A stretch of DNA of 64,000 nt. It comes from Candidatus Altimarinota bacterium. Lineage in GTDB: Bacteria; Patescibacteriota; Gracilibacteria; UBA1369; GCA-2718715. Position 1 is the first letter of the stretch. Every line of letters begins with the position of its first letter. The stretch lies in assembly GCA_041242255.1 (NCBI GenBank), contig JBESAV010000001.1:448001-512000 (forward strand), read 5' to 3'. The position numbers and the translations under genes are program-made. The notes below the pieces were generated by a model, which was not told the DNA's origin, did no database searches, and was given only the letters and a program-made list of their open reading frames with translations. Shown in pieces: positions 4,941 to 17,247 of this stretch.

Positions 4941-5809
4941 AATAATACATTGAAGTAACTTGTTGTATTAGCATAATGTCCAGTATATTCATAAGAATTA
5001 GTATAACCAATAATCTCTGGATCTTTTTTCATCAAGCGAGCAAGCTCAACTCCAATCAAAAGTGAAGGAGGGGAGTCTACATTATCAATTTTCAAATCTT
5101 CAACATCCATCGACATAATAGCCTCACGAGTCTCCTGATCATAAACACCCGCCTGATTTACAGTCCTGTAATGATTAAAATCAACACTGATCACAAACTT
5201 TGCTTCATCATAATATTTAGTCAGAAATTTTGCCAACTCACGACTTTCCTTGTTCCCAGCTGAAGAGGACACAGATATAGGAACTATCCTAGCTTCAGGA
5301 TTTGTCATTTTTATATAATCAGCTTGCACTCCAATAGAGTGTTCTTTTTCAAAACAACCAGGCTCCATATTCACAAACCCACTTTCAACCAATTCTTCAA
5401 CAATACTCGGCTCACTCTCTAACAATCCAAAATTAGTTTTATAATCATGGTCTCCAGTGCTGAAAACATCCTCACATTTTTCCGGATGGTCAGGTCCAAT
5501 TACAATAAAAAGATCATCTTCATCACTCAAAAATTGCTCATAAAACTCACCAACAAAATCAGCTGCCACAGGCAAATGATGCGAGGTTATACCAATTCTA
5601 CTTGTTGATTCTTCTATGCTTTCTGGCCTACTAAAACTTCTCTCTATAGCCAGCTTATATTTAGAGTTATTACTATCTATCACTAGGTTTCCAACTTCAA
5701 TACTTTGAAGTGAACTTTCCTGAAAAGGGGAGTCCACTCCAGCGTAGCCCTGGCATCCAGCCAAGGCTACTAAACTAAGAATTAAGATACTAGGTTTATA
5801 GGTTTTCAT
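4934..5809 (-). CDS. MEMO1 / AmmeMemoRadiSam protein B-like lipoprotein
   Basis: Lipobox LAGC after a hydrophobic stretch; motifs SHH, IGPDH, EHSI and SVDFNHY; start overlaps the A2M stop (TAATG). Confidence 0.8.
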   Translation of the reverse strand: MKTYKPSILILSLVALAGCQGYAGVDSPFQESSLQSIEVGNLVIDSNNSKYKLAIERSFSRPESIEESTSRIGITSHHLPVAADFVGEFYEQFLSDEDDLFIVIGPDHPEKCEDVFSTGDHDYKTNFGLLESEPSIVEELVESGFVNMEPGCFEKEHSIGVQADYIKMTNPEARIVPISVSSSAGNKESRELAKFLTKYYDEAKFVISVDFNHYRTVNQAGVYDQETREAIMSMDVEDLKIDNVDSPPSLLIGVELARLMKKDPEIIGYTNSYEYTGHYANTTSYFNVLFQ

Positions 5810-8800
5810 TATCTGATAGTTATATTTCCATCTTCTCCTCTAGCCACATTATCAGCATCATACTCTTTGATTTGGGCACCTTGCACTTTAAATTCTCCAT
5901 CAGATACAACTCTAGCAAAGTAACTTATCTCACCATCATTACAGTTGTTATAACGCTCTAAAGAGTAACTAGATCGACTGAAAGTAATCACATTCCCAAC
6001 ACTCTTACCTCCATACCAATTATAACTACATGTCTCACTATTAAATTGATACCTAGTCACATTATTTATCACTGGTCTTAATCCAGAAGGTAAATAATCA
6101 ATAATCTGGTAATTCTTATATTCATCTTCATTGTAAATAGAGTCTTCAATATCTATCACAACTCGAACCAAGTCACCACTTTCAAACTGACTCGTTTCTA
6201 CTCCATCCACAAGATACCTCTTACTTATACTTAGATTTTGACTATTCCCAGCTAGGTCACCACTTTCTCTATAGCTAGCTACAAGCATTACCTCTCCATC
6301 AATACTTTCAACTTCCAGAGCCTCAGCTTGAGCTTTAGTTATCTTCTCATATCTCGAGAATCCATCACTCAAGTCAAACTCCATAACCTCATCTCCAATC
6401 CTTAAACTAACCAAAGACTCAACCAACTCAACATTTGATATAACTTTTTCCATTGCCATCACACCAGCAATACCATACACAGAACCATCACTTTCAAATA
6501 CTTCCAAAGCCTCTCCATCTACAGGCAAACCAATTCTAGCTCTCAAAAGATTATTTAACTGAGTAAACTGACCCTCTACTAAGTCACTCGAGATAGAGTT
6601 GTTATACATCGCTCTAGCACCTTCTTTATCTCCCATCTTCTCAAGCCCAAGCGCTACATATATTTCACCAAGTTTAGTATTCTCAGAGCTTCTAGCTACT
6701 TCTTTAAGTTCAGCCAAAACATTTTCTCCCAAACTTGCTAATCCATATAAGGCAATAGAGGTTCTCTCAATGTCTGCAGTCTTGTTAACCATCTGCTCTC
6801 TTAGATAACTAGAAGTCTTAGCTTTCAAAATATCATCCCCAAGAATATCAGAGACTAAAGCTGTTAATTCCAGGTCAGCATCACCATAAGTAAACAACGC
6901 CAATCCATTATTATCAGGCACATAGTAATCATTCAGATTCAAATCAATTTTTTCAGGTTCATTATTCCCAAACTGTTCACTCATCAAATCAACAATGTAG
7001 TTTCTTGTTACAATCTGATCCAACCTATTATTCACAACATAAAGTCCAGATCTCAACTCAGGTAAAAATTTACCTTTCCCAACTGTAGCTAATTCTAGAT
7101 CAACCATTCCCTCAGCAGGAACCTCTAGTCCAACTGCTCCAGTACTATCAATCAACACATCCTCAAATGCTAATCTTTGACCATATGATTCAATCACCTC
7201 AAAAGGCAATACCAATGTGTCAGCATTATCTCCCTGTCTTACAGTCAACTTAGCTTCGTGTATCCCAAGTTGAAGTTCTTCGATCTGGAAACCATAAGAA
7301 GTTTCACTACTAGTAACCTCTTCCAAAATCCCTAGCGATTCAATTTCCAAAACATAATCAATCTCATCTCCAATCACCAAGTCCTCCCCATAAGCTCTGA
7401 TCTCCATAACTGGTTTATCCTCTAGCAGGTAAGTGTCATTAATACTCGTTGCAGCAAACACAGGCAAGCTAACAGGCACTTTTATGTTATCTTGCCCAGC
7501 CAAAATTCTTTCATTTTCAAATGCCTTTGCTGAGATCCTCCATGAAGTTAAGTTATCAGGAAGATCAAAGAAAGCAGTTGCACTACCACCAGCATTTGTT
7601 TCGAAAGTATCAAACAAGCTTACATCTTTAAACTCAGATCTTTCAGCTCCACCTTTCTCAGCATTATGTACATAAATCCCATCCGCAAAGTATGTATGGG
7701 TTTTATCTACATTCAAGTTATACACTCTAGTTGCAGGCTTATTTACATATTCAATTTTTTCAATCCTAACAATCTCTCCATTTTCTCCAATCAATTCATC
7801 TCCAACCTCAGCCATCCCAGCCAATCTCCATTTTCCATTTAAGAAGATTTCATGTTCACCTGTTACTTCCAGCTCATCATTAATAATCATGTAACCATCT
7901 ACCAAATAGCTATGAACACCTTGCACAGTTACAATCTTCTTATTACCAGAATTTTCATTAGCGAAGCTCAAGACTTGGTCTCCAACTCGAACCTCCTCAA
8001 TCGGTTTACTTTCACCATTCGACATTAATACCATTGTCCCAGGTAAGAAACATCCTCCTTGCTCAGCACCAGCATCCATATTAGCCGCTTCAAGGCGTTC
8101 ATTTTTATTTGCCCCACTTTGCGGACTATCAATATTATCAATGTACAAAGTACTTAATATATCTTTCTCATACTCATAAGGTAAAACATGGAATAATGCC
8201 TCATCCACAGAAGCCAGGTTAACTTCAGCCTTTACCGGATCACCATTCACATCAGTTACTTCCATCTCAATCTCAACTCTTTCTCCAGGTCTATATCTAT
8301 CCTTGTCTGTTTGCATGTTTATGGAAAGCTCACTTTGCAATTCATCATACGAAGCAATCACTCTATTTGTATCCTCAAATCCAGTCTCAGTCAAAACAAC
8401 AGCCTGGTAAGCAAACCCAGGAATAAACTCTTCTTTAAATACTTTCGATACATTCTCCGAAGGAGTAACCTCAAAATCATCTATTGCAGTCTGGTACCCA
8501 TAGTATAAGTACTCCTCAGATTGTAGAGTCTTCTCTTCTGGAACATCCAATTCAAGCTCAAACTCTTCGCCTATTTTCAATTCAGGCTCCTGAGATCTAC
8601 TATTCAAGCTCAAAGTGATCCTTGAATCATCATAGAAACCAAAAGATCTATATCCTATATAGTTTTTAGTTTCAAAATTCACACCTCTGTCATCAGTCGA
8701 ACTTAAGATCACATAGTAAGAAGTATATAGATCTTTCTGTTGTTCAGTTGGCTCAAAGGTAAACTCAAATTCACCCTCACCATTTGTAACACCTTGCTTA

Positions 8801-11181
8801 GAGGTTAAAAAGTTTTCTCTGAACTCATACCTATATTGTTGCTGAGAAGTTTTCGAAACAGGATCATAGTAAAACCCATCTTCTATTTTTTCATAATAAG
8901 TTCCATAAATAGTTGCAGTCACACCTTTTCCAGTATCTGGATCACCGATGAACTCACTTCTGTAATAACCCCTCGAATCAGAGGTGGCATTTGCTAGGTT
9001 AACTTCATTAAGTTTTGCAGTGAGATTATATAAATCATCATCACTAGAAACATCATTTATTAATTGCATATAAACATCTTCCTCAAACACCAAAACTTCA
9101 GTCTGTGCACTTATCTCTCCTTGTTCAGGACTACCAGTTCTAAGGTAAATATTTCTAGAGTTTGGTCCATAACTAAATTCATCATCAGATCTATATGCAG
9201 TCGCACTGATAACTCCTTGTCCGTTCTCATCTAACTGCAGAGTGCTTTCTGAATTGTTGTAGTAATTTTGAGAAATATAATCACTGTACTGAACTTCTAG
9301 ATTTGGCACAGGTGTTCCATCAAAGAACTTAGCCTCAACCTCAATATCAACTGTTTCACCAGCAAACATGGAGTCTCGACTAGGAGTAGCAATCAACTGG
9401 TAAGCCGGCGTCTCAAAATCAACAATCTGCAAGCTCGAAGTAGAAATCACTTCATCATCTTTCTCTACTTGTAGTGTGTAGTAACCCGGTTCAATACCCT
9501 CAAAACTCAAAGATCCTTTAATCGTATCAAAGCTACTCACAACCGCCGTAGAAGAGGCAAGTTTATTATCATCCCAGTAACCATAGTAGTAGTAACTTCC
9601 ACCAGTCAAACTAACAGTTACTTTATCATTTTTTAGATCATCCTCTCGACCTTTAACCACTCCCCAAAAGTTTATCTCATCCGTAGGCCTATAAACATAA
9701 CGATCACTACTCAAGAAATTCCAATATCTATCAGCTTTAGGATAATAAAAACCATACCAGTTTGAATCTTCCATCATACTCAAATATGTTTCACCATTCC
9801 ATTCAACCATAAACGAACTAGGCCTATTATCTCCCATACCTTCAGATCTTTCTTTAAGGTAATCAGGCGCATTGTAATTCAATAATCCTTTCTCATTAGT
9901 TCGACCAAGGTCAGTAGTCTCACCACCTCCGATCAAACTAACATCAGCTCCATCCAAGAAAGATCCATTCTCAAAATCATACAACCATAATAACCCCGTT
10001 TCACTTGTATAAGTGTAGTAGTGGGCTAGGGGAGAAACCTGGAACCAAACAATCGACCTATCTCCATTATTACTATTTTCAATCTCAATTGCATATGTCC
10101 CAGTTTCCAGCTCATCTGCTAGATAAAGCACTCTTGAGTAATTTTGCTCAACAATCTCCGGCGAAACCTCATATAGTTTTGTAGCTTTCTCCAAACTCAA
10201 CTCATCATCAAAACTATTTTTATAAATTGAAGTCCAGTACCAGTTCCAATTCTTACTCTGACCATACTCTTCCATAAAGTCCTCAGTCGATTCGTATCTA
10301 TAAATACTTGTCGTATAATCTTCGTTAAATCCTTCTGTATCTAGCTCAGTATAACCAATACTAAAGAACTTATCTCCTCCTGGGAAAAAGCTTTCGTAAT
10401 CACTCCAGAAATTGATACCTCTTTCATTATAAGCCTCTGAAGATGTTTCAAATGTAAACACAAAGTCCTCTCCAAAGCTAGAATCTCTCTCATCAAACAA
10501 AGCTTGATCAACCGTCACAGTGTAAACTGTACCTTCTTGCATCCCAGCATGCACCAAAACTAGTTTCTCATCTTCTACTCGCACATCATAGTCCAAACTA
10601 GGCTCCACACTCACAAAACTAGCATCACCTTCAGTAACATCTTCGTTAAATTCAATCTCTATCGAAGAATCAATTGGCACATACGTCCCTCTGTTTCTTG
10701 GTAAACTAGATATCACCTGAAAGTCAGCTTCCACAGCAAAAGCCCAAGAATAATCTCTATTAGACTCTATGTTTGCCACCAAAAGCTCACCTTTAGGCAG
10801 CTCAACACTCGGAGTTAGAGTATATGAGTAGGTAGCATTACTATTTAGCTCTGCCCCCTGTGCTTTAGCTTGAGGAATCATACTCAGTATTCCACCTTGC
10901 TTCTCAACTTTAAACTCAATTTCAGGCTCAAAACTCACCAACTCTCTCACATCACTCTCAGATAATTCAACCTTACTATCCAGTGTGAAAGAAGATCCAG
11001 CTTTAGTCACAAAGTCTTCAAAAGTATCATTAGCTCTCAAGCTAAACAAAGTTTCTTCATCACTTTTATCAAAGTCATTAATCCCACTATCAAAAAGCAA
11101 ATCTCTGTACATAAAACCAACACCCACCAAAAGAATCACCAATAGGGAAGTCACTATTGGTAGAATAAATTTCTTATTCAT
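5809..11181 (-). CDS. alpha-2-macroglobulin family protein (Ig-like + MG2 + bait-region + A2M domains) with an internal Hint domain
   Basis: N-terminal TM; MG2 motif SDRYVYRPTDEINFWG; TDKDRYRPGE and LASVDEALF; FDLPDNLTSWRISA; C-terminal GDLVRV...IDYLPSGLRP. Confidence 0.9.
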   Translation of the reverse strand: MNKKFILPIVTSLLVILLVGVGFMYRDLLFDSGINDFDKSDEETLFSLRANDTFEDFVTKAGSSFTLDSKVELSESDVRELVSFEPEIEFKVEKQGGILSMIPQAKAQGAELNSNATYSYTLTPSVELPKGELLVANIESNRDYSWAFAVEADFQVISSLPRNRGTYVPIDSSIEIEFNEDVTEGDASFVSVEPSLDYDVRVEDEKLVLVHAGMQEGTVYTVTVDQALFDERDSSFGEDFVFTFETSSEAYNERGINFWSDYESFFPGGDKFFSIGYTELDTEGFNEDYTTSIYRYESTEDFMEEYGQSKNWNWYWTSIYKNSFDDELSLEKATKLYEVSPEIVEQNYSRVLYLADELETGTYAIEIENSNNGDRSIVWFQVSPLAHYYTYTSETGLLWLYDFENGSFLDGADVSLIGGGETTDLGRTNEKGLLNYNAPDYLKERSEGMGDNRPSSFMVEWNGETYLSMMEDSNWYGFYYPKADRYWNFLSSDRYVYRPTDEINFWGVVKGREDDLKNDKVTVSLTGGSYYYYGYWDDNKLASSTAVVSSFDTIKGSLSFEGIEPGYYTLQVEKDDEVISTSSLQIVDFETPAYQLIATPSRDSMFAGETVDIEVEAKFFDGTPVPNLEVQYSDYISQNYYNNSESTLQLDENGQGVISATAYRSDDEFSYGPNSRNIYLRTGSPEQGEISAQTEVLVFEEDVYMQLINDVSSDDDLYNLTAKLNEVNLANATSDSRGYYRSEFIGDPDTGKGVTATIYGTYYEKIEDGFYYDPVSKTSQQQYRYEFRENFLTSKQGVTNGEGEFEFTFEPTEQQKDLYTSYYVILSSTDDRGVNFETKNYIGYRSFGFYDDSRITLSLNSRSQEPELKIGEEFELELDVPEEKTLQSEEYLYYGYQTAIDDFEVTPSENVSKVFKEEFIPGFAYQAVVLTETGFEDTNRVIASYDELQSELSINMQTDKDRYRPGERVEIEMEVTDVNGDPVKAEVNLASVDEALFHVLPYEYEKDILSTLYIDNIDSPQSGANKNERLEAANMDAGAEQGGCFLPGTMVLMSNGESKPIEEVRVGDQVLSFANENSGNKKIVTVQGVHSYLVDGYMIINDELEVTGEHEIFLNGKWRLAGMAEVGDELIGENGEIVRIEKIEYVNKPATRVYNLNVDKTHTYFADGIYVHNAEKGGAERSEFKDVSLFDTFETNAGGSATAFFDLPDNLTSWRISAKAFENERILAGQDNIKVPVSLPVFAATSINDTYLLEDKPVMEIRAYGEDLVIGDEIDYVLEIESLGILEEVTSSETSYGFQIEELQLGIHEAKLTVRQGDNADTLVLPFEVIESYGQRLAFEDVLIDSTGAVGLEVPAEGMVDLELATVGKGKFLPELRSGLYVVNNRLDQIVTRNYIVDLMSEQFGNNEPEKIDLNLNDYYVPDNNGLALFTYGDADLELTALVSDILGDDILKAKTSSYLREQMVNKTADIERTSIALYGLASLGENVLAELKEVARSSENTKLGEIYVALGLEKMGDKEGARAMYNNSISSDLVEGQFTQLNNLLRARIGLPVDGEALEVFESDGSVYGIAGVMAMEKVISNVELVESLVSLRIGDEVMEFDLSDGFSRYEKITKAQAEALEVESIDGEVMLVASYRESGDLAGNSQNLSISKRYLVDGVETSQFESGDLVRVVIDIEDSIYNEDEYKNYQIIDYLPSGLRPVINNVTRYQFNSETCSYNWYGGKSVGNVITFSRSSYSLERYNNCNDGEISYFARVVSDGEFKVQGAQIKEYDADNVARGEDGNITIR
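7663..8052 (-). other. Hint (bacterial intein-like) domain, 130 aa, residues 1044-1173 of the A2M
   Basis: Block A CFLPGTMV, block B VTGEH, block F VYNLNVDKTHTYFADG, block G VHN; the +1 residue is Ala; no endonuclease domain. Confidence 0.93.
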
Positions 11182-11241
11182 AAATTAAAATTAGATTTGC
11201 TGGAATTATAGCAATCTCAATTTAAATACACAAAAATTGTT

Positions 11242-12639
11242 CTAGACCAAAGTCCCTTCTAGTAACCAATCAGTCGACTTGTCCACATAAACATCAACCA
11301 TTTGTCCAATCAAACTTTCATCACCATCAAATGCAACTTCCTTGTAGTGTTCAGTCCTCCCTTGATACTTTCCAACTCTTTCATTGTATCTTTCCACCAA
11401 AACCTTCACCGTTTTTCCTTCAAACACATCATGTCTTGCTCTAGCACTTTTTCTTAGCACTTCATTCATACTGTGCCACCTTCTTTTCTTTTCCTCTCTA
11501 GAAACAGTATCTTCCATCAACATTTCTGCCGGTGTTCCTTTCCTAGGTGAAAACTGACTGATGAAAGCTAGATCAAATCCAATCTCCTCAAAAAACTCAC
11601 AACTTTCCTTAAACATCTCTTCTGTCTCACCACAAAAACCAACAATCATATCAGTTGATATAGAGCAATCAGGCATATATTTTCGAATAGTTTTCACAAT
11701 CTCCCTAAACTTCTCAGTATCATAATTACGATTCATTTTCTTCAGCATAGCATTCGAACCAGACTGCAAAGGCAAGTGAATATATGGCATCAAGGTTCTT
11801 CCGTCAGCAATGGTTTTAACAACTTCTTCAGTGATATCCTGCGGGTGCGGTGAAGTAAATCTAAGTCTCTCAAGCCCTTCAATCGTATCCAATTTCTTCA
11901 AAAGTTGCACAAAAGGATTCTCATGATACTCAAACAAACCACTTTTCTTATCTTCCCAGCTCATACCAAAACTATTCACGTTTTGCCCAAGCAAAGTAAT
12001 CTCTAAGCAACCATTCTCCACAAGCTCAAGCGCCTCTTTATAAACAGACTCAATCGGACGGCTCTTTTCACGCCCACGAGAGTAGGGAACTATACAATAA
12101 GTACAAAACTTATCACACCCAGACATGATTGGAATATACGCCTGAAAGTCATTTATATATTTAGGCTGAATCTTAAAGTAATTCTCAAGATCAGCTTCTT
12201 TCTGCTCTAATTCAGAAAACTTAGGATCAACTTCAGTCAGCAATTCACCAAGCTTAGGCAGATCAGCAATCGGAAAAACTATATCCAAACAGTCCACTCT
12301 ATTCAGCAATGGATCTTTCTCTTTTGATTTCCTAGTAGATGCAGTTCTAGTCATGCAACCAGTTATCCCAACCAATAATTTATCATTCTTCCTCTTCAAC
12401 TTCTTCATATGTTTCATCATCCCAAGCACCTTATCTTCAGCCTTCTGTTTGATAGAACAAGTATTGAATATAATGAAATCAGCCTCAGCCTCCTCTTCAG
12501 TTGGCTTATAACCATAACTTTCAAGCAATCCACTCAATCTTTCTGAATCAGAATGATTCATCTGACATCCATGAGTTCGGACCAAATACTTTAACTCTTT
12601 TTCTTCTACAAAGTTCATATCAAACTTTAAATCAATCAA
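11242..12639 (-). CDS. miaB: tRNA-i6A37 methylthiotransferase MiaB
   Basis: GCQMNHSDSE, NTCSIKQKAE and radical SAM CDKFCTYC motifs; C-terminal TRAM domain. The start may be ATG at 12618. Confidence 0.92.
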   Translation of the reverse strand: MIDLKFDMNFVEEKELKYLVRTHGCQMNHSDSERLSGLLESYGYKPTEEEAEADFIIFNTCSIKQKAEDKVLGMMKHMKKLKRKNDKLLVGITGCMTRTASTRKSKEKDPLLNRVDCLDIVFPIADLPKLGELLTEVDPKFSELEQKEADLENYFKIQPKYINDFQAYIPIMSGCDKFCTYCIVPYSRGREKSRPIESVYKEALELVENGCLEITLLGQNVNSFGMSWEDKKSGLFEYHENPFVQLLKKLDTIEGLERLRFTSPHPQDITEEVVKTIADGRTLMPYIHLPLQSGSNAMLKKMNRNYDTEKFREIVKTIRKYMPDCSISTDMIVGFCGETEEMFKESCEFFEEIGFDLAFISQFSPRKGTPAEMLMEDTVSREEKKRRWHSMNEVLRKSARARHDVFEGKTVKVLVERYNERVGKYQGRTEHYKEVAFDGDESLIGQMVDVYVDKSTDWLLEGTLV

Positions 12640-12752
12640 ATTATATAAATTTATCCAAAAAACTCAACCAATCCCAACCCCATCTACAAGCTATTCTGTA
12701 ATCCCAAAACCTAATCTACAAAACAAACATACAAATAATGCAAATACATTAC

Positions 12753-12781
12753 TTGTACACTTATTAAAAATTTGGTATAGT
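12753..12781 (+). promoter_or_regulatory. sigma70-type promoter of the putative ncRNA
   Basis: TTGTAC (12753-58), 17-nt spacer, TATAGT (12776-81) with an extended -10 TG. Confidence 0.65.
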
Positions 12782-12786
12782 TATAC

Positions 12787-13251
12787 GAAGTCCAAAGAAA
12801 AAGGCTTCACAAAAGAAGTGAGAACAGACGTAGTTGACTCAAACGGTGCGCACCCAGAGTAATAAACTCACAGATCATTTACAGACAGAGACACAGCCAA
12901 AGAGTAGAGACTGAAATCTATACTCAATCAAAACTTTTAGTTTCCCTCTTTTGCTTTGTGATTGGATAAGAACTAACCATTCTTACCCGATATAAACCCT
13001 TTGCTTGGTAGACTATTTTTTAGCCTTGTGCCTTGTCACACTATCAAATCTTCTACACAAAAACAAGCGGTCCGGTGGTAAGACTTGAAACTAACCGAAG
13101 CACAGCAAAAGATAAACTGGATAGATGGTTACTATCAATCGGAAAGCCTTCCTAGACCGAAAGTTCCCGGTGATTGACGTAATTTTTAATCACTATCAAG
13201 GGAACAGTCTAAGAAAGCCTGCCGAGGAAGACCCTTAGGGGTCTTTTTTTT
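12787..13251 (+). ncRNA. putative large structured non-coding RNA, family unassigned
   Basis: No ORF of 60 aa or more; lies between a promoter and a terminator; many local and long-range helices whose G-U pairs favour the + strand. Confidence 0.7.
13228..13251 (+). terminator. intrinsic terminator
   Basis: AAGACCC-TTAG-GGGTCTT followed by a T run. Confidence 0.8.
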
Positions 13252-13333
13252 ATGTTCTATGCTCAAAAATAAACTTACACTCTTTGCAAAAAGCGCAATT
13301 TGTGTTATCATTCTTTAATGATAATAAAAGTTT

Positions 13334-13504
13334 ATGGCCCTACTATTCACGGAGTCTAGAAAGCTATTCATAATTTTCACAACCGTTTTACTGCTTGTTT
13401 TCTCTGTATCTACACTTTTCCTCTGGGATAACCACGAAATGGGGGACATAGCCGACCACGGAAAAGCCAGCTCCCTCCACGCCCCAAGCGTAGTTCCATA
13501 TTAA
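13334..13504 (+). CDS. small membrane protein (56 aa)
   Basis: Below the track cutoff: MALLFTESRKLFIIFTTVLLLVFSVSTLFLWDNHEMGDIADHGKASSLHAPSVVPY. One TM helix; promoter-like TTGCAA...TGtTATCAT at 13284-13311. Confidence 0.55.
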   Translation: MALLFTESRKLFIIFTTVLLLVFSVSTLFLWDNHEMGDIADHGKASSLHAPSVVPY

Positions 13505-13512
13505 AATATTTC

Positions 13513-13540
13513 AAAAAAAACCAACCTTTTACAGTTGGTT
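13513..13540 (-). terminator. intrinsic terminator of 13560..13883
   Basis: Minus strand reads AACCAACT-GTAAAA-GGTTGGTT followed by a T run. Confidence 0.65.
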
Positions 13541-13559
13541 AGCATTCAAAACAAAGATT

Positions 13560-13883
13560 CTATCCACCTCCTTCTAGGAATCTTTCCCTAGTGTTTTCAT
13601 AGGTCTTAATAGCTAGATTGTACCGAGCATCGTGGTCATAACCCTCTTCGTTTTTTGTAGAAAGGTCCTCATACAATTCATCTCGAGATATACCACGGTC
13701 ATCCTGGTAGCCTCTAATTAAAAACTCTGGAAACCAAAAACAAGTTTCATTTTCCTTTTTTTCAGCTAGAGGTACATTTTTCCCATCTTCAAAACGTTTA
13801 ATGACATGAAAAATTTGAATTAGTCTCTCTTCTCTAATTGGATTAGAGATTTTAGGGAAAACATCAAAGCTTTTCAGCTCCAT
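13560..13883 (-). CDS. orphan hypothetical protein (107 aa)
   Basis: ATG with SD AAGGAG 6 nt upstream; has its own promoter and terminator. Confidence 0.7.
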   Translation of the reverse strand: MELKSFDVFPKISNPIREERLIQIFHVIKRFEDGKNVPLAEKKENETCFWFPEFLIRGYQDDRGISRDELYEDLSTKNEEGYDHDARYNLAIKTYENTRERFLEGGG

Positions 13884-13991
13884 TGGAAACTCCTTTTCTT
13901 TGTTTTTTGAATGAACATTAGTGAGAACTAAACACCACTATGGATTTAGCTTCAACATTTGCATTAAATACTTAAAAAGTTGATATATCAA
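13884..13991 (-). promoter_or_regulatory. promoter and structured leader, copy A
   Basis: TTGATA-N17-TTTAAT, hairpin 13953..13923, TGTTCATTCA box, then SD. Confidence 0.6.
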
Positions 13992-14004
13992 GTAAGGTAT
14001 CAAT

Positions 14005-14035
14005 AAAAAAAAGACCACCTTTCAAAGGCAGTCTT
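14005..14035 (-). terminator. intrinsic terminator of 14045..14374
   Basis: Minus strand reads AAGACTGCCTT-TGA-AAGGTGGTCTT followed by T6; the stem is complete (with G-U pairs) only on the minus strand. Confidence 0.75.
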
Positions 14036-14044
14036 CTGAAACAT

Positions 14045-14374
14045 TCAGTAAGATAAGTCTTCCATTAAACGTTGCCTAAAACCTTCTAAATCATCATCTT
14101 CATGCCAGAACATTGAAAATTCACAGTTTTCAATCTTCAAGAAATAAAACCCAGTTGCATCATCAAATTGAATTTCTGACAAAGCTTCTGAATTATTCAT
14201 CGCATTAAAGTTTTCAGTACTTATCCATTTGTAATAAGGCATAAACTTATAGCAACACCCACTGTCAATCAGTATAGGACTAAACCTTTCACTATAGTCA
14301 ACTAAAATTTCAATTATCCTTTTAGCCTTTTTCAGTTCAAGTCCATATCTTTGTCTACTCGTAAAGTGCAGCAT
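14045..14374 (-). CDS. orphan hypothetical protein (109 aa)
   Basis: ATG with SD AGGAGG 5 nt upstream; has its own promoter and terminator. Confidence 0.7.
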   Translation of the reverse strand: MLHFTSRQRYGLELKKAKRIIEILVDYSERFSPILIDSGCCYKFMPYYKWISTENFNAMNNSEALSEIQFDDATGFYFLKIENCEFSMFWHEDDDLEGFRQRLMEDLSY

Positions 14375-14475
14375 ACTTACCTCCTATTGTATGAATGAAC
14401 AGTTACAGAAGTTAAACTCGACAATCGATTCAACTTCATTGAGTTCATTAAAGTGTAGATGCCTGCTTTTGTCAA
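14375..14475 (-). promoter_or_regulatory. promoter and structured leader, copy B
   Basis: TTGACA-N17-TTTAAT, hairpin 14437..14408, TGTTCATTCA box, then SD. Confidence 0.6.
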
Positions 14476-14519
14476 ATCTAAGGTCTACCAGTATAATATC
14501 TAGAACCTATCAATAAAAT

Positions 14520-14834
14520 ATGAAACATTTCTTCATCACTATCCAAACCCATTTATATATAGAGGATAAACTTCAAGATTGCATCAATTTCTCTACATAC
14601 TACATTCAAGCCAAAGACGAGTCTGAAGCCACTCAATATATAAAGAAGCTTCAACCAATTACATATAAAAATATCAATGACCAAACCTGCCAGTGGAGAT
14701 TTCATCGAATTCAATCAATCGATCAATTATCAGATCTTTCAACATCAAAAGAGATCTCAGGTTTCATAGTTTCACCCCAAGACCTCCAGTCAGACTTAAA
14801 AAACTCTACAAAGCTTACTTCACAACAAAGTTAA
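14520..14834 (+). CDS. DUF4288-like protein
   Basis: 104 aa; the pattern IQAKDESEA...YKNINDQTCQWRF resembles DUF4288. Confidence 0.55.
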   Translation: MKHFFITIQTHLYIEDKLQDCINFSTYYIQAKDESEATQYIKKLQPITYKNINDQTCQWRFHRIQSIDQLSDLSTSKEISGFIVSPQDLQSDLKNSTKLTSQQS

Positions 14835-17247
14835 TAATCTTCCCAGGAACGTAGATCTCTTTCACCACATCTTTACCTTCTAGAGAACCTGCCACTACTT
14901 CACGTGATTTTTCCAAAGCTGACTCACGAGCTTCATCTACACCAAGCTCCACTTCACCACGAAGCTTCCCATTAACTTGAACTCCAAGAGTCACCACATC
15001 GTCCACCAACATTTCTGGATTAGCCTCAGGCCAAACTTTCCCCGCAGCAAACAAACTTTCCTCATGCTCTAAAACATCCATCCAGATCTCTTCAGCCATA
15101 TGAGGAGCAAGAGGGGAGATAAGGGTAACAATTTTTTCTTTAGCATCACGAGTTAACCCTTTCTTAGAGGCTAGATTGGTGAATTCCATCAAAGCACTCA
15201 GACAAGTGTTAAACTGCAGGTTTTCCATATCAGTAGTAATACTATCAATGACCTTATGAAGTTTTTTCTCCACTTCCTTATCCAGCTCAGAAACTTCCGG
15301 AGATAAAAGCATCTTCCAGAATTTATCTCTAAATCTCAAAACTCCAGTTATCCCAGTATCACTCCAGTCACCACCGTCAGCAAAAGGTCCCATAAACATC
15401 AAGTACATTTTCAAGATATCACTTCCATGTTTCTCTACATATTCATCGGGATTTACGACATTACCTTTAGACTTACTCATTTTCGCACCATCTTTGGTGA
15501 TTAGACCTTGATGGAAAAGCCTAAGTGTAGGTTCTTTATGATCCACATATCCAAGCTTTTGCATCACCATATTCACAAACCTCACATACAAAAGGTGCAT
15601 AGTCGCATGTTCCGAACCACCGATGTACATATCAATCGGTGCCCATTTCTTAGCCAAAGCTTTATCAATTGCTTGAGTATCATCATTTGCGTTAGGGTAT
15701 CTCAAGTAGTACCACGAAGAACACACAAAAGTATCCAAAGTATCAGTTTCACGTTTTGCATTACCACCGCAAGAAGGACACTTACAATTCACAAACTCTT
15801 CTGAGGTCGCCAAAGGAGCTTTCCATTTCGGCTGATAATCTACATCTCTAGGTAGTTCTACCGGAAGATCGCTTACTGGTACAGGAACAACCCCACAGTC
15901 ATCACAGTACACCACTGGAATTGGCGCTCCCCAATACCTCTGGCGAGAAACCGACCAATCCCTAAGTCTATAAGTTGTTTTAGCTGAACCTTTCCCAATA
16001 GCTTCAAGTTTTGCAGTAATACCTTCTTTCACTTTCTCAGAAATCTCCCCGTCAAATTCACCAGAGTTCTTAGCAATTCCATAACCAGTAAAGATTTCTT
16101 CCTCTCCTTTATCTCCATCTATGACTTCTATGATATCCAGTTTGTATTTCTTAGCAAATTCATAGTCTCGTTTATCATGAGCCGGAACAGCCATGATAGC
16201 TCCAGTTCCATAACTTCCAATCACATAATCCGCCACCCAAATCGGAACAGGCTTACCATTAATAGGGTTTTCAGCATATGAACCAGTAAATACACCAGTC
16301 TTTTCTTTACCTTCTGCCGATCTTTCAATTTCATTTTTCATCAAAGCAGCCTTGATGTACTTCTCACATTGCTCTCTGTAATCATCAGCCAAAAGCTCAT
16401 CAACCATTGGATGCTCTGGTGCCACAACCATATAAGTCGCACCATACAAGGTATCCGCTCTTGTTGAGAAAGCTACTAGGCTTTCTCCAGTTTTTTCCGT
16501 ATACCCACTATCTTCACTTAAAAGATCAAACACTATCTCAGTTCCTTCACTTTTCCCAATCCAATTCTCCTGCATTTTTCGGGTTTTTTCTGGCCAATCC
16601 GTTCCACTAAAGTCCAAAAGATCTTCTGCAAAATCAGTAATCTTAAAGTACCACTGTTTCATAAGTTTTTTCTCAACCACAGCTCCTGATCTCTCAGCAG
16701 TTCCATCCGCTAGAACCTGCTCGTTCGCTAAAACAGTTTGGTCAACTGGATCCCAATTCACCAAAGACTCAGCTTGGTAAGCCAAACCTTCTTCCAGCAT
16801 TTTCAAAAACAACCATTGCGTCCACTTATAGTACTCTGGAGAAGAAGTGATCACCTGCTTACTCCAGTCCCACATTCCACCCATTTCTGAGATTTGTTTT
16901 TTCATTGTAGCTACGTTTGTCGAGATACTATCCTCAGGATGTACCCCAGTTTTGATCGCATAATTCTCAGCTGGCAAACCAAAACTATCAAACCCCATAG
17001 GTTGAAAAACAGTCTTACCTGTTAGCCTCATATATCTTCCAAAAGTATCAACACCTCCGTAATTCAACCAGTGTCCCATATGCAAATTCGACCCAGAAGG
17101 GTAGGGAAACATGGTTAGATTATAAAACTTATCCTCCTCAGGAGTACCCTCAATATCTACTTCATGTAGTTTATCTTCCGCCCATTTCTTTCTCCACTTC
17201 TTTTCAACCTCTACTGCATTGTATTCTCTAACTTTATTTTTAGACAT
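14815..17247 (-). CDS. leuS: leucine--tRNA ligase
   Basis: MFPYPSGSNLHMGH, RLRDWSVSRQRYWG, KMSKS and GVQVNGKLRG motifs. Confidence 0.98.
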   Translation of the reverse strand: MSKNKVREYNAVEVEKKWRKKWAEDKLHEVDIEGTPEEDKFYNLTMFPYPSGSNLHMGHWLNYGGVDTFGRYMRLTGKTVFQPMGFDSFGLPAENYAIKTGVHPEDSISTNVATMKKQISEMGGMWDWSKQVITSSPEYYKWTQWLFLKMLEEGLAYQAESLVNWDPVDQTVLANEQVLADGTAERSGAVVEKKLMKQWYFKITDFAEDLLDFSGTDWPEKTRKMQENWIGKSEGTEIVFDLLSEDSGYTEKTGESLVAFSTRADTLYGATYMVVAPEHPMVDELLADDYREQCEKYIKAALMKNEIERSAEGKEKTGVFTGSYAENPINGKPVPIWVADYVIGSYGTGAIMAVPAHDKRDYEFAKKYKLDIIEVIDGDKGEEEIFTGYGIAKNSGEFDGEISEKVKEGITAKLEAIGKGSAKTTYRLRDWSVSRQRYWGAPIPVVYCDDCGVVPVPVSDLPVELPRDVDYQPKWKAPLATSEEFVNCKCPSCGGNAKRETDTLDTFVCSSWYYLRYPNANDDTQAIDKALAKKWAPIDMYIGGSEHATMHLLYVRFVNMVMQKLGYVDHKEPTLRLFHQGLITKDGAKMSKSKGNVVNPDEYVEKHGSDILKMYLMFMGPFADGGDWSDTGITGVLRFRDKFWKMLLSPEVSELDKEVEKKLHKVIDSITTDMENLQFNTCLSALMEFTNLASKKGLTRDAKEKIVTLISPLAPHMAEEIWMDVLEHEESLFAAGKVWPEANPEMLVDDVVTLGVQVNGKLRGEVELGVDEARESALEKSREVVAGSLEGKDVVKEIYVPGKIINFVVK

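Follow-up and report, generated by a model that had tools for sequence, protein, structure and literature searches.

We describe here a structured non-coding RNA (ncRNA) encoded on the + strand of the window, the 64-kb stretch of DNA analysed in this work, which spans C1:448001-512000 of the single-contig, 1,000,477-bp genome of a Candidatus Altimarinota bacterium (98.5% complete, GC ~37%). We are highly confident that window positions 12788-13250 (+) constitute an independently transcribed gene for an RNA of ~463 nucleotides (nt), the first described member of its family, and there is similarly little doubt in our minds that the family belongs specifically to a single order of Patescibacteria of the Peregrinibacteria/Peribacteria type and has weaker relatives in other parts of the class. 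The RNA represents a new family of large and structured ncRNAs in bacteria. It matches no known family in Rfam, it covaries strongly in alignments of 17 and of 30 sequences, it is present in RNA-seq assemblies of two studies and RNase P RNA and tmRNA are found elsewhere in the genome. The original prediction, made from the letters of the window, had proposed a stand-alone large ncRNA that was possibly a new family, and these lines of evidence support it; none of the tests that it had named as able to refute it did so.

Fold and covariation

The fold can be described in three parts. The RNA very probably begins with a variable 5′ leader followed by helix P1. Next, and we hold this just as firmly, the long-range helix P2 closes a central domain that contains P3, P4 (which encloses the long hairpin P5) and an H-type pseudoknot that is near-invariant. 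With equal assurance we place after this P6, whose loop kisses the loop of P3, then a long 3′ hairpin, P7, and finally a terminator. The features, with window coordinates and strand, are as follows.

12753..12781 (+): predicted sigma-70-type promoter, TTGTAC at 12753-12758, a 17-nt spacer and TATAGT at 12776-12781
12787..12906 (+): 5′ leader, poorly conserved even within the family, with a small hairpin (12787-12792/12803-12808) and an A-rich AGCCAAAGAG-type motif
12907..12944 (+): P1, in which 12907-12915 pairs with 12936-12944 around a variable loop (RNAalifold on 8 sequences)
12947..12959 with 13100..13112 (+): P2 (5′ strand 12947-12955) and P2b (12957-12959), closing the central domain
12962..12990 (+): P3 hairpin, with both-side changes in 8 of 9 pairs (30 sequences)
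13003-13007 with 13064-13068 (+): P4, GCUUG/CAAGC, 97.9% paired, both-side changes in 4 of 5 pairs
13008-13056 (+): P5 hairpin enclosed by P4, its base GUAGA/UCUAC 98.3% paired with both-side changes in 3 of 4 pairs, its tip variable
13069..13096 (+): core H-type pseudoknot, near-invariant, made of stem 1, stem 2 and an A-rich third loop (13086-13090)
13120..13136 (+): P6 hairpin, stem 92.2% paired, both-side changes in 4 of 4 pairs (30 sequences)
13139..13225 (+): P7, a long irregular 3′ hairpin, its two parts 86.3% and 82.4% paired, both-side changes in 14 of 22 pairs
13224..13249 (+): intrinsic terminator found by a terminator scan, an 11-bp stem GAGGAAGACCC/GGGGTCTTTTT whose 3′ strand continues into a T-run

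Removal of identical copies left 17 distinct sequences, whose central domain was aligned with MAFFT, i.e. without fitting to any structure; L018-L020, L026 and L039, which were non-homologous by profile or gave partial weak matches, were excluded from all alignments. In the 17-sequence alignment, 92.8% of the cells in the central domain are paired, compared with 36-43% after a shift of the 3′ strands by 1-3 columns, and 19 of the 49 pairs show changes on both sides. In 500 shuffles, the percentage paired, the covariation score and the counts of both-side changes were never reached, whereas 452 of them reached the number of further pair types. A covariance model built from this alignment (R1; 217 positions, 38 pairs) was used to recover more distant members, and the resulting 30-sequence alignment, which draws on several families, has 91.7% of its cells paired, against 37-43% with partners slid, and both-side changes in 34 of 46 pairs, with no shuffle among 500 reaching any of the five measures, pair counts that are inflated for the nested helices to which the model fits the sequences. 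Pseudoknot stem 1 and the kissing loop lie outside R1 and yet covary in these 30 sequences; because stem 1 is absent from the model, the alignment was not fitted to it. Within the family, P1 and P7 together have 81.9% of their cells paired, compared with 37-52% when slid, and both-side changes in 18 of 31 pairs. The central domain thus described contains nine covarying helices or tertiary pairings, to which P1 and P7 are added.

The RNA lies on the + strand. Among the paired cells of the 30 sequences there are 150 G-U and 26 A-C combinations, the structure pairs 91.7% of the cells when read as the + strand and 82.3% if complemented, and promoters and terminators lie on the same strand.

Many of the helices read by eye in the original prediction recur in this model. 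P2, the long-range helix UCUUUUGCU/AGCAAAAGA with a 3-bp extension (P2b), is conserved and covarying as proposed, with 90.9% of the P2/P2b cells paired and both-side changes in 8 of 12 pairs (30 sequences), and a conserved GAAGCA-type segment (13097-13102) precedes the 3′ strand of P2b/P2. The hairpin at 12961-12991 (now P3), the pairings GCTTG/CAAGC (P4) and GTAGA/TCTAC (the base of P5) and the long 3′ arm at 13139-13225 (P7) have likewise proved to be conserved and covarying. The TGTG/CACA pairing falls in a variable hairpin tip and is not conserved, and the tip of P5 does not align between families; an A-rich joiner (13057-13063) lies within P4. A set of UGG/CCG pairs given by RNAalifold (columns 85-87 with 304-306) competes with the better-supported base of P3 and was rejected.

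At the 5′ side, the leader hairpin GAAGTC/GGCTTC (12787/12803) that had been read from the window exists, but it is kept by the closest relative only, with one U-G to U-A change in the alignment, and the leader as a whole (12787-12906) is outside the RNA-library contigs aligned to the locus. Pairing of the leader's AGCCAAAGAG-type motif with the 5′ strand of P2 was considered and rejected, as the motif does not follow the compensatory changes that the 3′ strand of P2 tracks in the alignment. P1 is the weakest supported helix (72% of cells paired and both-side changes in 4 of 9 pairs in 17 sequences), and it displaces two pairings proposed earlier, namely GAGTAGAGA/TCTATACTC (12902/12917), of which 8 of 9 pairs form in the window but for which the homologues support the overlapping P1 instead, and TAGTTT/AAACTG (12938/13114), of which TAGTTT is part of P1.

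The core of the central domain is the pseudoknot, which is invariant within the window's family and covaries across families. Stem 1 pairs GGUC (13069-13072) with GACU (13082-13085) and has both-side changes in 3 of 4 pairs across families, with CGUC with GACG, GAUC with GAUU and GGCU with GGCC among the variants in the alignment. Stem 2 pairs GGU (13077-13079) with ACC (13094-13096), both-side changes being found in 2 of 3 pairs across families, where GGC/GCC and CCG/CGG occur. The register CGGTGGT/ACTAACCG (13073/13090) proposed earlier for this region is not conserved, although its GGU/ACC portion is indeed paired, as a pseudoknot stem. Many homologues have an optional hairpin in the first loop of the pseudoknot, between 13074 and 13077. 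The second tertiary contact joins the loop of P3 (UAACCAU, 12974-12980) to that of P6 (AUGGUUA, 13125-13131) in a kissing loop of 5 to 7 bp, 79% paired, with 2 to 3 pairs showing both-side changes; UAACUAG with CCAGUUA and UUACCA with UGGUAA are examples from the homologue alignment.

Known families and distribution

The Rfam 15 set used here holds 4227 families, including OLE, ROOL, GOLLD, raiA, HEARO, riboswitches and ribozymes. At gathering score, the window yields only two tRNAs, both elsewhere in the window, and a scan of 12550-13650 at E up to 10 yields nine unrelated weak matches of 13-23 bits, far under gathering score. There are no matches at gathering score in 39 homologous loci, and when 15 loci were scanned leniently (E up to 5), no family recurred over the RNA. 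A literature search, at abstract level for most papers, gave no account of this RNA; passages of PMC10768705 concern host genes. Two near-threshold matches were seen in homologous loci, one to 6S RNA in L085 (602-766, -; 44.9 vs 46.4 bits, E 5.9e-6), ~740 nt from its copy of the RNA, and one to the type III hammerhead in L077 (897-963, -; 36.5 vs 48.5 bits). In the window itself, a CRISPR repeat model matches weakly at 12597-12625 (+; 23.4 vs 35 bits, E 0.45), inside the start of a MiaB-like gene, and we take this match to be chance because a repeat array is absent.

Homologues were found in several ways. A DNA search of 60 relatives gave matches in 8 of the 9 other genomes of the same family, and nhmmer confirmed long matches in 7 of 10 loci tested, with the conserved part starting near 12891. 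A 20-letter degenerate core motif was furthermore scanned over two public collections, genome contigs and metagenomes, and the candidates were judged by nhmmer; full-length homologues were recovered at 8 of 16 genome-contig loci and at 10 of 25 metagenome loci. The eight homologue-bearing genome contigs are labelled Candidatus Peribacteria (three), Candidatus Peregrinibacteria (one), Patescibacteria group (one) and simply 'bacterium' (three).

Covariance models extend this distribution, with E-values that are rough since R1 and R2 were calibrated quickly. R1 has matches in 42 of 151 sampled genomes of the order, including all nine other genomes of the window's family. R2, a shorter model of 82 positions that contains the pseudoknot core and P6, has matches in 102 of the 151, and 26 of these 102 have two matches. 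By family, the best-covered families give 9/9, 21/22, 13/13, 9/9, 9/11 and 7/8, and one family gives 0/16. Outside the order, R2 matches 25 of 135 genomes in the class sample (E up to 0.001), some of which may be false, and in the phylum sample one genome outside the class has a weak match. Eight second copies (L128-L135; seven from the order and one from another order) and one first copy (L111) were fetched, and all nine match R1 over its full length at 18.6-62.3 bits with filters off; paralogues therefore exist. None of the nine has an Rfam match. The second copies L128-L134 are diverged and lie at unlinked places, for example in genomes G010, G017, G034, G046, G063, G121 and G148.

A further feature of some homologues outside the window's family (L077, L081, L083, L086, L088, L092 and L095) is a CA-rich single-stranded run of 15-60 nt (AACAAAAACAAAA-like) directly after P6. 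Similar runs lie upstream of the RNA in some loci, and the window's RNA has no CA-rich run after P6.

RNA evidence, predicted gene boundaries and neighbours

Four RNA-seq libraries from two studies were compared with 11200-15000, and each gave one contig, within 12948-13228; the contigs carry neither strand nor ends. Two of these, of 196 nt, are identical to the window, and the other two, of 269 and 255 nt (word depths 51 and 109), come from a relative that is ~95% alike. The flanks, 11200-12947 and 13229-15000, have no contig cover in the four libraries, which we do not count as evidence.

The unit had been described as free of open reading frames (ORFs) and as running from a promoter, TTGTAC-N17-TATAGT, to a terminator. 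The ORF list of the window indeed has none longer than 40 aa within 12753-13251, the promoter is found both in the sequence and by a promoter scan, which places it one base off from the reading of the sequence, and the terminator is found by the scan at 13224-13249. A TG lies two bases before the -10 hexamer, and transcription is expected to start near 12787-12788, judging by the position of the predicted promoter. An extra terminator hairpin equivalent to that of the window is found in two other family members, and in most members of the family a U-run directly follows P7, so that P7 doubles as the terminator there. Distant homologues have same-strand promoters of their own, ~117 nt upstream of the core in both cases: TTGACT-17-TATAAT in L083 (11 of 12 consensus positions) and TTGACT-17-TATACT in L081 (10 of 12). 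L083 also has a terminator on the strand of the RNA, ~100 nt downstream, and the scan of L081 gave the promoter only. With these predicted ends the RNA would therefore be ~400 nt long in these loci, compared with ~463 nt in the window. We infer the exact ends of the RNA from such signals.

The gap that hosts the RNA is flanked by a MiaB-like radical-SAM gene (11242-12639, -; UPF0004, Radical_SAM and TRAM domains) and by a 107-aa ORF (13560-13883, -). Within its own family, the RNA and the MiaB-like gene are arranged divergently, often with LeuRS on the other side of the RNA. Its flanks in other families are an MscS-like gene and, on the other side, an F420-ligase-like gene and then a formyltransferase, all on the strand opposite to the RNA, and in another order it lies beside a LOG-family gene. 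With no neighbour shared across these groups, the RNA is an independent gene, and its context provides no functional lead. Explanations that depend on context were rejected. A partner gene was sought by synteny, but the MiaB-like neighbour is family-specific and other families and orders have different neighbours. A cis-regulatory leader or riboswitch does not fit an RNA that ends in a terminator and is followed by genes on the other strand (13560-13883 and 14045-14374), with no same-strand gene downstream, and in other families the two adjacent genes likewise run opposite to the RNA. An RNA that guides or partners the protein of a mobile element or defence system (omega-RNA, tracrRNA, retron or similar) was rejected for lack of conserved adjacency; no nuclease, transposase or reverse transcriptase was seen among the genes neighbouring the RNA.

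Some other observations concern the surroundings of the gene. A second promoter-like site (13283-13311, +) lies upstream of a 56-aa ORF (13334-13504) that contains a hydrophobic stretch. This ORF, which has no tblastn counterpart in the homologous loci, could encode a small membrane protein particular to the lineage, or may not be a gene at all. Beyond the MiaB-like gene, 5809-11181 (-) encodes a 1790-aa alpha-2-macroglobulin-like protein (A2M bait region, MG2, bMG10 and Big_5 domains), in which a Hint/PT-HINT module at about residues 1034-1174 looks like a mid-protein insertion of the intein-like or pretoxin type. GC skew is strongly negative in all 2-kb bins across the 64 kb (-0.10 to -0.50), irrespective of local gene strand.

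Possible roles and likeness to known systems

We propose, tentatively and with rather less than even confidence, that this is a trans-acting, protein-binding ribonucleoprotein RNA. It would act in trans as a stable, compactly folded molecule, in which the kissing loop and the pseudoknot may lock the central domain in a single shape, and a binding surface for one or more proteins could be formed by the invariant core and the conserved nucleotides of the surrounding junction. Its role would then be that of a housekeeping or regulatory ribonucleoprotein RNA, as opposed to a leader acting in cis or an antisense transcript; that it binds protein, or has a given cellular role, is our inference from these features. 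A trans-acting structural RNA fits best because the unit stands alone, its compact fold is locked by two tertiary contacts, conservation is concentrated in the junctions and pseudoknot, paralogues occur occasionally and the RNA is retained in 1-Mb genomes. When identity and mechanism are taken as one, we lean modestly towards this overall reading.

Several observations weigh against it. First of all, the folding energy of the + strand is modest against shuffles (minimum free energy z -2.77): none of 100 shuffles is as good, but the - strand folds better still (z -5.46), and the case therefore rests on covariation. Within the covariation evidence, the fitting of the 30-sequence alignment to the nested helices raises their pair counts, and P1 is paired in 72% of cells only. 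Second, the contigs cover 12948-13228 only and speak to presence in an RNA library rather than to strand, ends or level; RNA-seq libraries can moreover contain DNA, and it is the predicted promoter that supports the 5′ 160 nt of the RNA. Third, 3 of 13 inspected class-level R2 matches are inside long ORFs and may be false. Finally, no neighbour gene is conserved across families and no protein partner emerges, Hfq and CsrA were not found in this genome, and the invariant pseudoknot core would suit a catalytic or ligand-binding role equally well. Hfq and CsrA are the usual partners of bacterial sponge RNAs; a role as a sponge for either, suggested by the CA-rich run after P6 in other families, was rejected, with neither protein found in the genome and the run missing from the window's RNA.

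A role as a ribozyme, for which we see a slim chance, would place an active site in the junction of P2, P3 and P4 together with the invariant pseudoknot, where either the RNA itself or a trans substrate would be processed. Large ribozymes typically show conservation in junctions and pseudoknots and a fold locked by tertiary contacts, and here too conservation is strongest in the junction and pseudoknot nucleotides rather than in the helices, two tertiary pairings lock the fold, and the RNA is kept in 1-Mb genomes across the order. No Rfam ribozyme family matches it, however, no conserved candidate cleavage site or substrate was found, and the RNA contigs run through the core uninterrupted; OLE RNA is similarly conserved and has no known catalytic activity. 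We give no more weight, and no less, to a self-assembling, RNA-only complex, in which the loops of P3 and P6 would pair between molecules to give dimers or larger assemblies. These loops are complementary over 5-7 bases and covary, covariation is blind to whether a pairing is formed in cis or in trans, and in size and ornateness the RNA is like ROOL, GOLLD and OLE, which recent cryo-EM work is said to show as dimers or larger RNA-only assemblies. P3 and P6 are near each other in the secondary structure, on the other hand, so that an intramolecular contact is simpler, no repeated or symmetric architecture is seen, and there is no homology to those three RNAs.

A trans-acting ligand sensor is less probable again. 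Here the H-type pseudoknot with its A-rich third loop would form a small-molecule pocket controlling the shape of the rest of the RNA, and the topology and approximate size of the core do resemble those of the preQ1-I and SAM-II aptamers, with nucleotides that are invariant in the family. Yet scanning at E up to 10 gave no match to any Rfam riboswitch, a terminator closes the RNA with no same-strand gene following and with neighbours that vary between families, and an aptamer role would leave ~400 nt of further conserved structure unexplained.

We consider it very improbable that the RNA is one of the universal RNAs (signal recognition particle (SRP) RNA, 6S RNA, RNase P RNA or tmRNA), so extremely diverged as to escape the models of Rfam. 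What speaks for this is that SRP RNA (RF00169 and RF01854, E up to 10) and 6S RNA (RF00013) have no matches in the genome, which leaves one or two housekeeping RNAs to be accounted for. RNase P RNA and tmRNA, however, are encoded elsewhere, RNase P RNA (RF00010) with a single genome match at C1:837117-837483 (188.9 bits, model positions 1-367) and tmRNA (RF00023) with a match over gathering score at C1:210147-210569 (102.8 bits) and none at 12753-13251; the scan of 12550-13650 at E up to 10 lists no SRP model either. The earlier statement that no tmRNA, RNase P or SRP signature is seen in the unit is supported. An identity as SRP RNA, which its absence from the genome might suggest, was rejected, as no Ffh or FtsY was detected as a partner and GGUC pairs inside the pseudoknot. 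An identity as 6S RNA was rejected in view of the covarying fold, which is branched and pseudoknotted unlike the 6S rod with its central bubble, and of the separate near-threshold 6S match close to the RNA copy in L085.

The apparent lack of an SRP deserves mention in its own right. Neither SRP RNA nor the Ffh M domain was detected in this genome: PF02978 (Ffh M domain) has no matches, PF00448 has two sub-threshold P-loop matches only, and a local phmmer search with E. coli Ffh against all six-frame ORFs gave no Ffh or FtsY homologue (best E 0.41), in a test whose controls recovered RplS, TrmD and RpsP and missed RimM (3 of 4). The same phmmer test was negative in the complete 786-kb genome of another class of the phylum (G287). 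In genome samples, PF00448 passes its cut-off just once among 41 genomes from the order, and never among 151 from the class or 121 from the phylum. These searches suggest an apparent loss of SRP in these genomes.

Least probable of all is that the locus has no trans-acting + strand RNA and instead is transcribed from the minus strand, acts as a cis leader, encodes a small protein or is conserved as a DNA element. The better folding of the minus strand (z -5.46 vs -2.77) and the ORFs of 30-40 aa on the + strand at 13033-13238 are outweighed by the excess of G-U over A-C cells (150 vs 26), the + strand promoters and terminators, compensatory substitutions in the stems, whole-hairpin insertions that disrupt any reading frame and the absence of a same-strand downstream gene.

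The protein-binding ribonucleoprotein RNA thus remains the role that we prefer. Irrespective of role, at least 102 of the 151 sampled genomes of the order retain the RNA, sometimes as two paralogues, and its core is invariant in the family and covaries between families, which points to strong selection in bacteria that have lost much else; the RNA occupies ~0.05% of a densely coded 1.0-Mb genome. New large and intricate bacterial RNA classes are rare, and earlier ones gave unexpected biology: HEARO, for example, has proved to guide IscB, and cages made of RNA are built by ROOL and GOLLD. Uncultivated Patescibacteria are known mostly from their protein genes, a picture in which a conserved RNA this large is a gap, and the covariation-backed model with its two tertiary contacts provides a concrete target for structure work. 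A bolder proposal, which we think unlikely, is that we are dealing with a class of large functional RNA not known before and restricted to a single lineage of the candidate phyla radiation (CPR), either a new natural ribozyme or an RNA whose covarying loop-loop pairing assembles it into a multimeric particle of defined form. If that were true, it would be an RNA-based machine in symbiont-type bacteria with 1-Mb genomes and would have no counterpart in studied organisms.

We finally compare the RNA with known systems. RNase P RNA and tmRNA are similarly large, with long-range helices and pseudoknots and usually one copy per genome, and differ from it in being both present elsewhere in this genome with full-length matches. 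The preQ1-I and SAM-II aptamers share with the core at 13069-13096 a short first stem, a loop that gives the 5′ strand of stem 2 and an A-rich third loop, but there is no Rfam match at E up to 10, and the pseudoknot here is inside a 460-nt RNA without a downstream gene. 6S RNA, an abundant, stable and trans-acting RNA, can be likened to this one for its paralogy and abundance, since some bacteria keep two 6S paralogues and two copies are found here in 26 of 102 genomes; 6S, on the other hand, is a rod of ~185 nt with a central bubble, whereas the fold here branches and includes both a kissing loop and a pseudoknot, and RF00013 gives no match to it. OLE is like this RNA in standing alone, in its several hundred nt with many covarying helices and a conserved core, in its restriction to one lineage and in a function that its sequence did not make obvious. 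It is, however, a Firmicutes RNA of ~600 nt, compared with ~460 nt here, there is no match in sequence or structure, and OLE adjoins oapA, whereas the neighbours of this RNA change between families. ROOL and GOLLD are large ornate bacterial ncRNAs as well, with an obscure biochemical function and with loop-loop pairings, important in the assemblies reported for them, that compare with the covarying kissing loop described here. They differ in that there is no Rfam match, in that this RNA is smaller and chromosomal, with one or two copies across the order, and in that no prophage or tRNA-cluster association was seen for it in the loci examined. The comparison with OLE, ROOL and GOLLD made in the original prediction thus holds for size and complexity but not for homology. 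With ~463 nt between the predicted promoter and terminator, as a stand-alone unit built of covarying helices with tertiary pairings, the RNA resembles in these respects the large ornate bacterial ncRNAs, which are a descriptive group and not one defined by homology.

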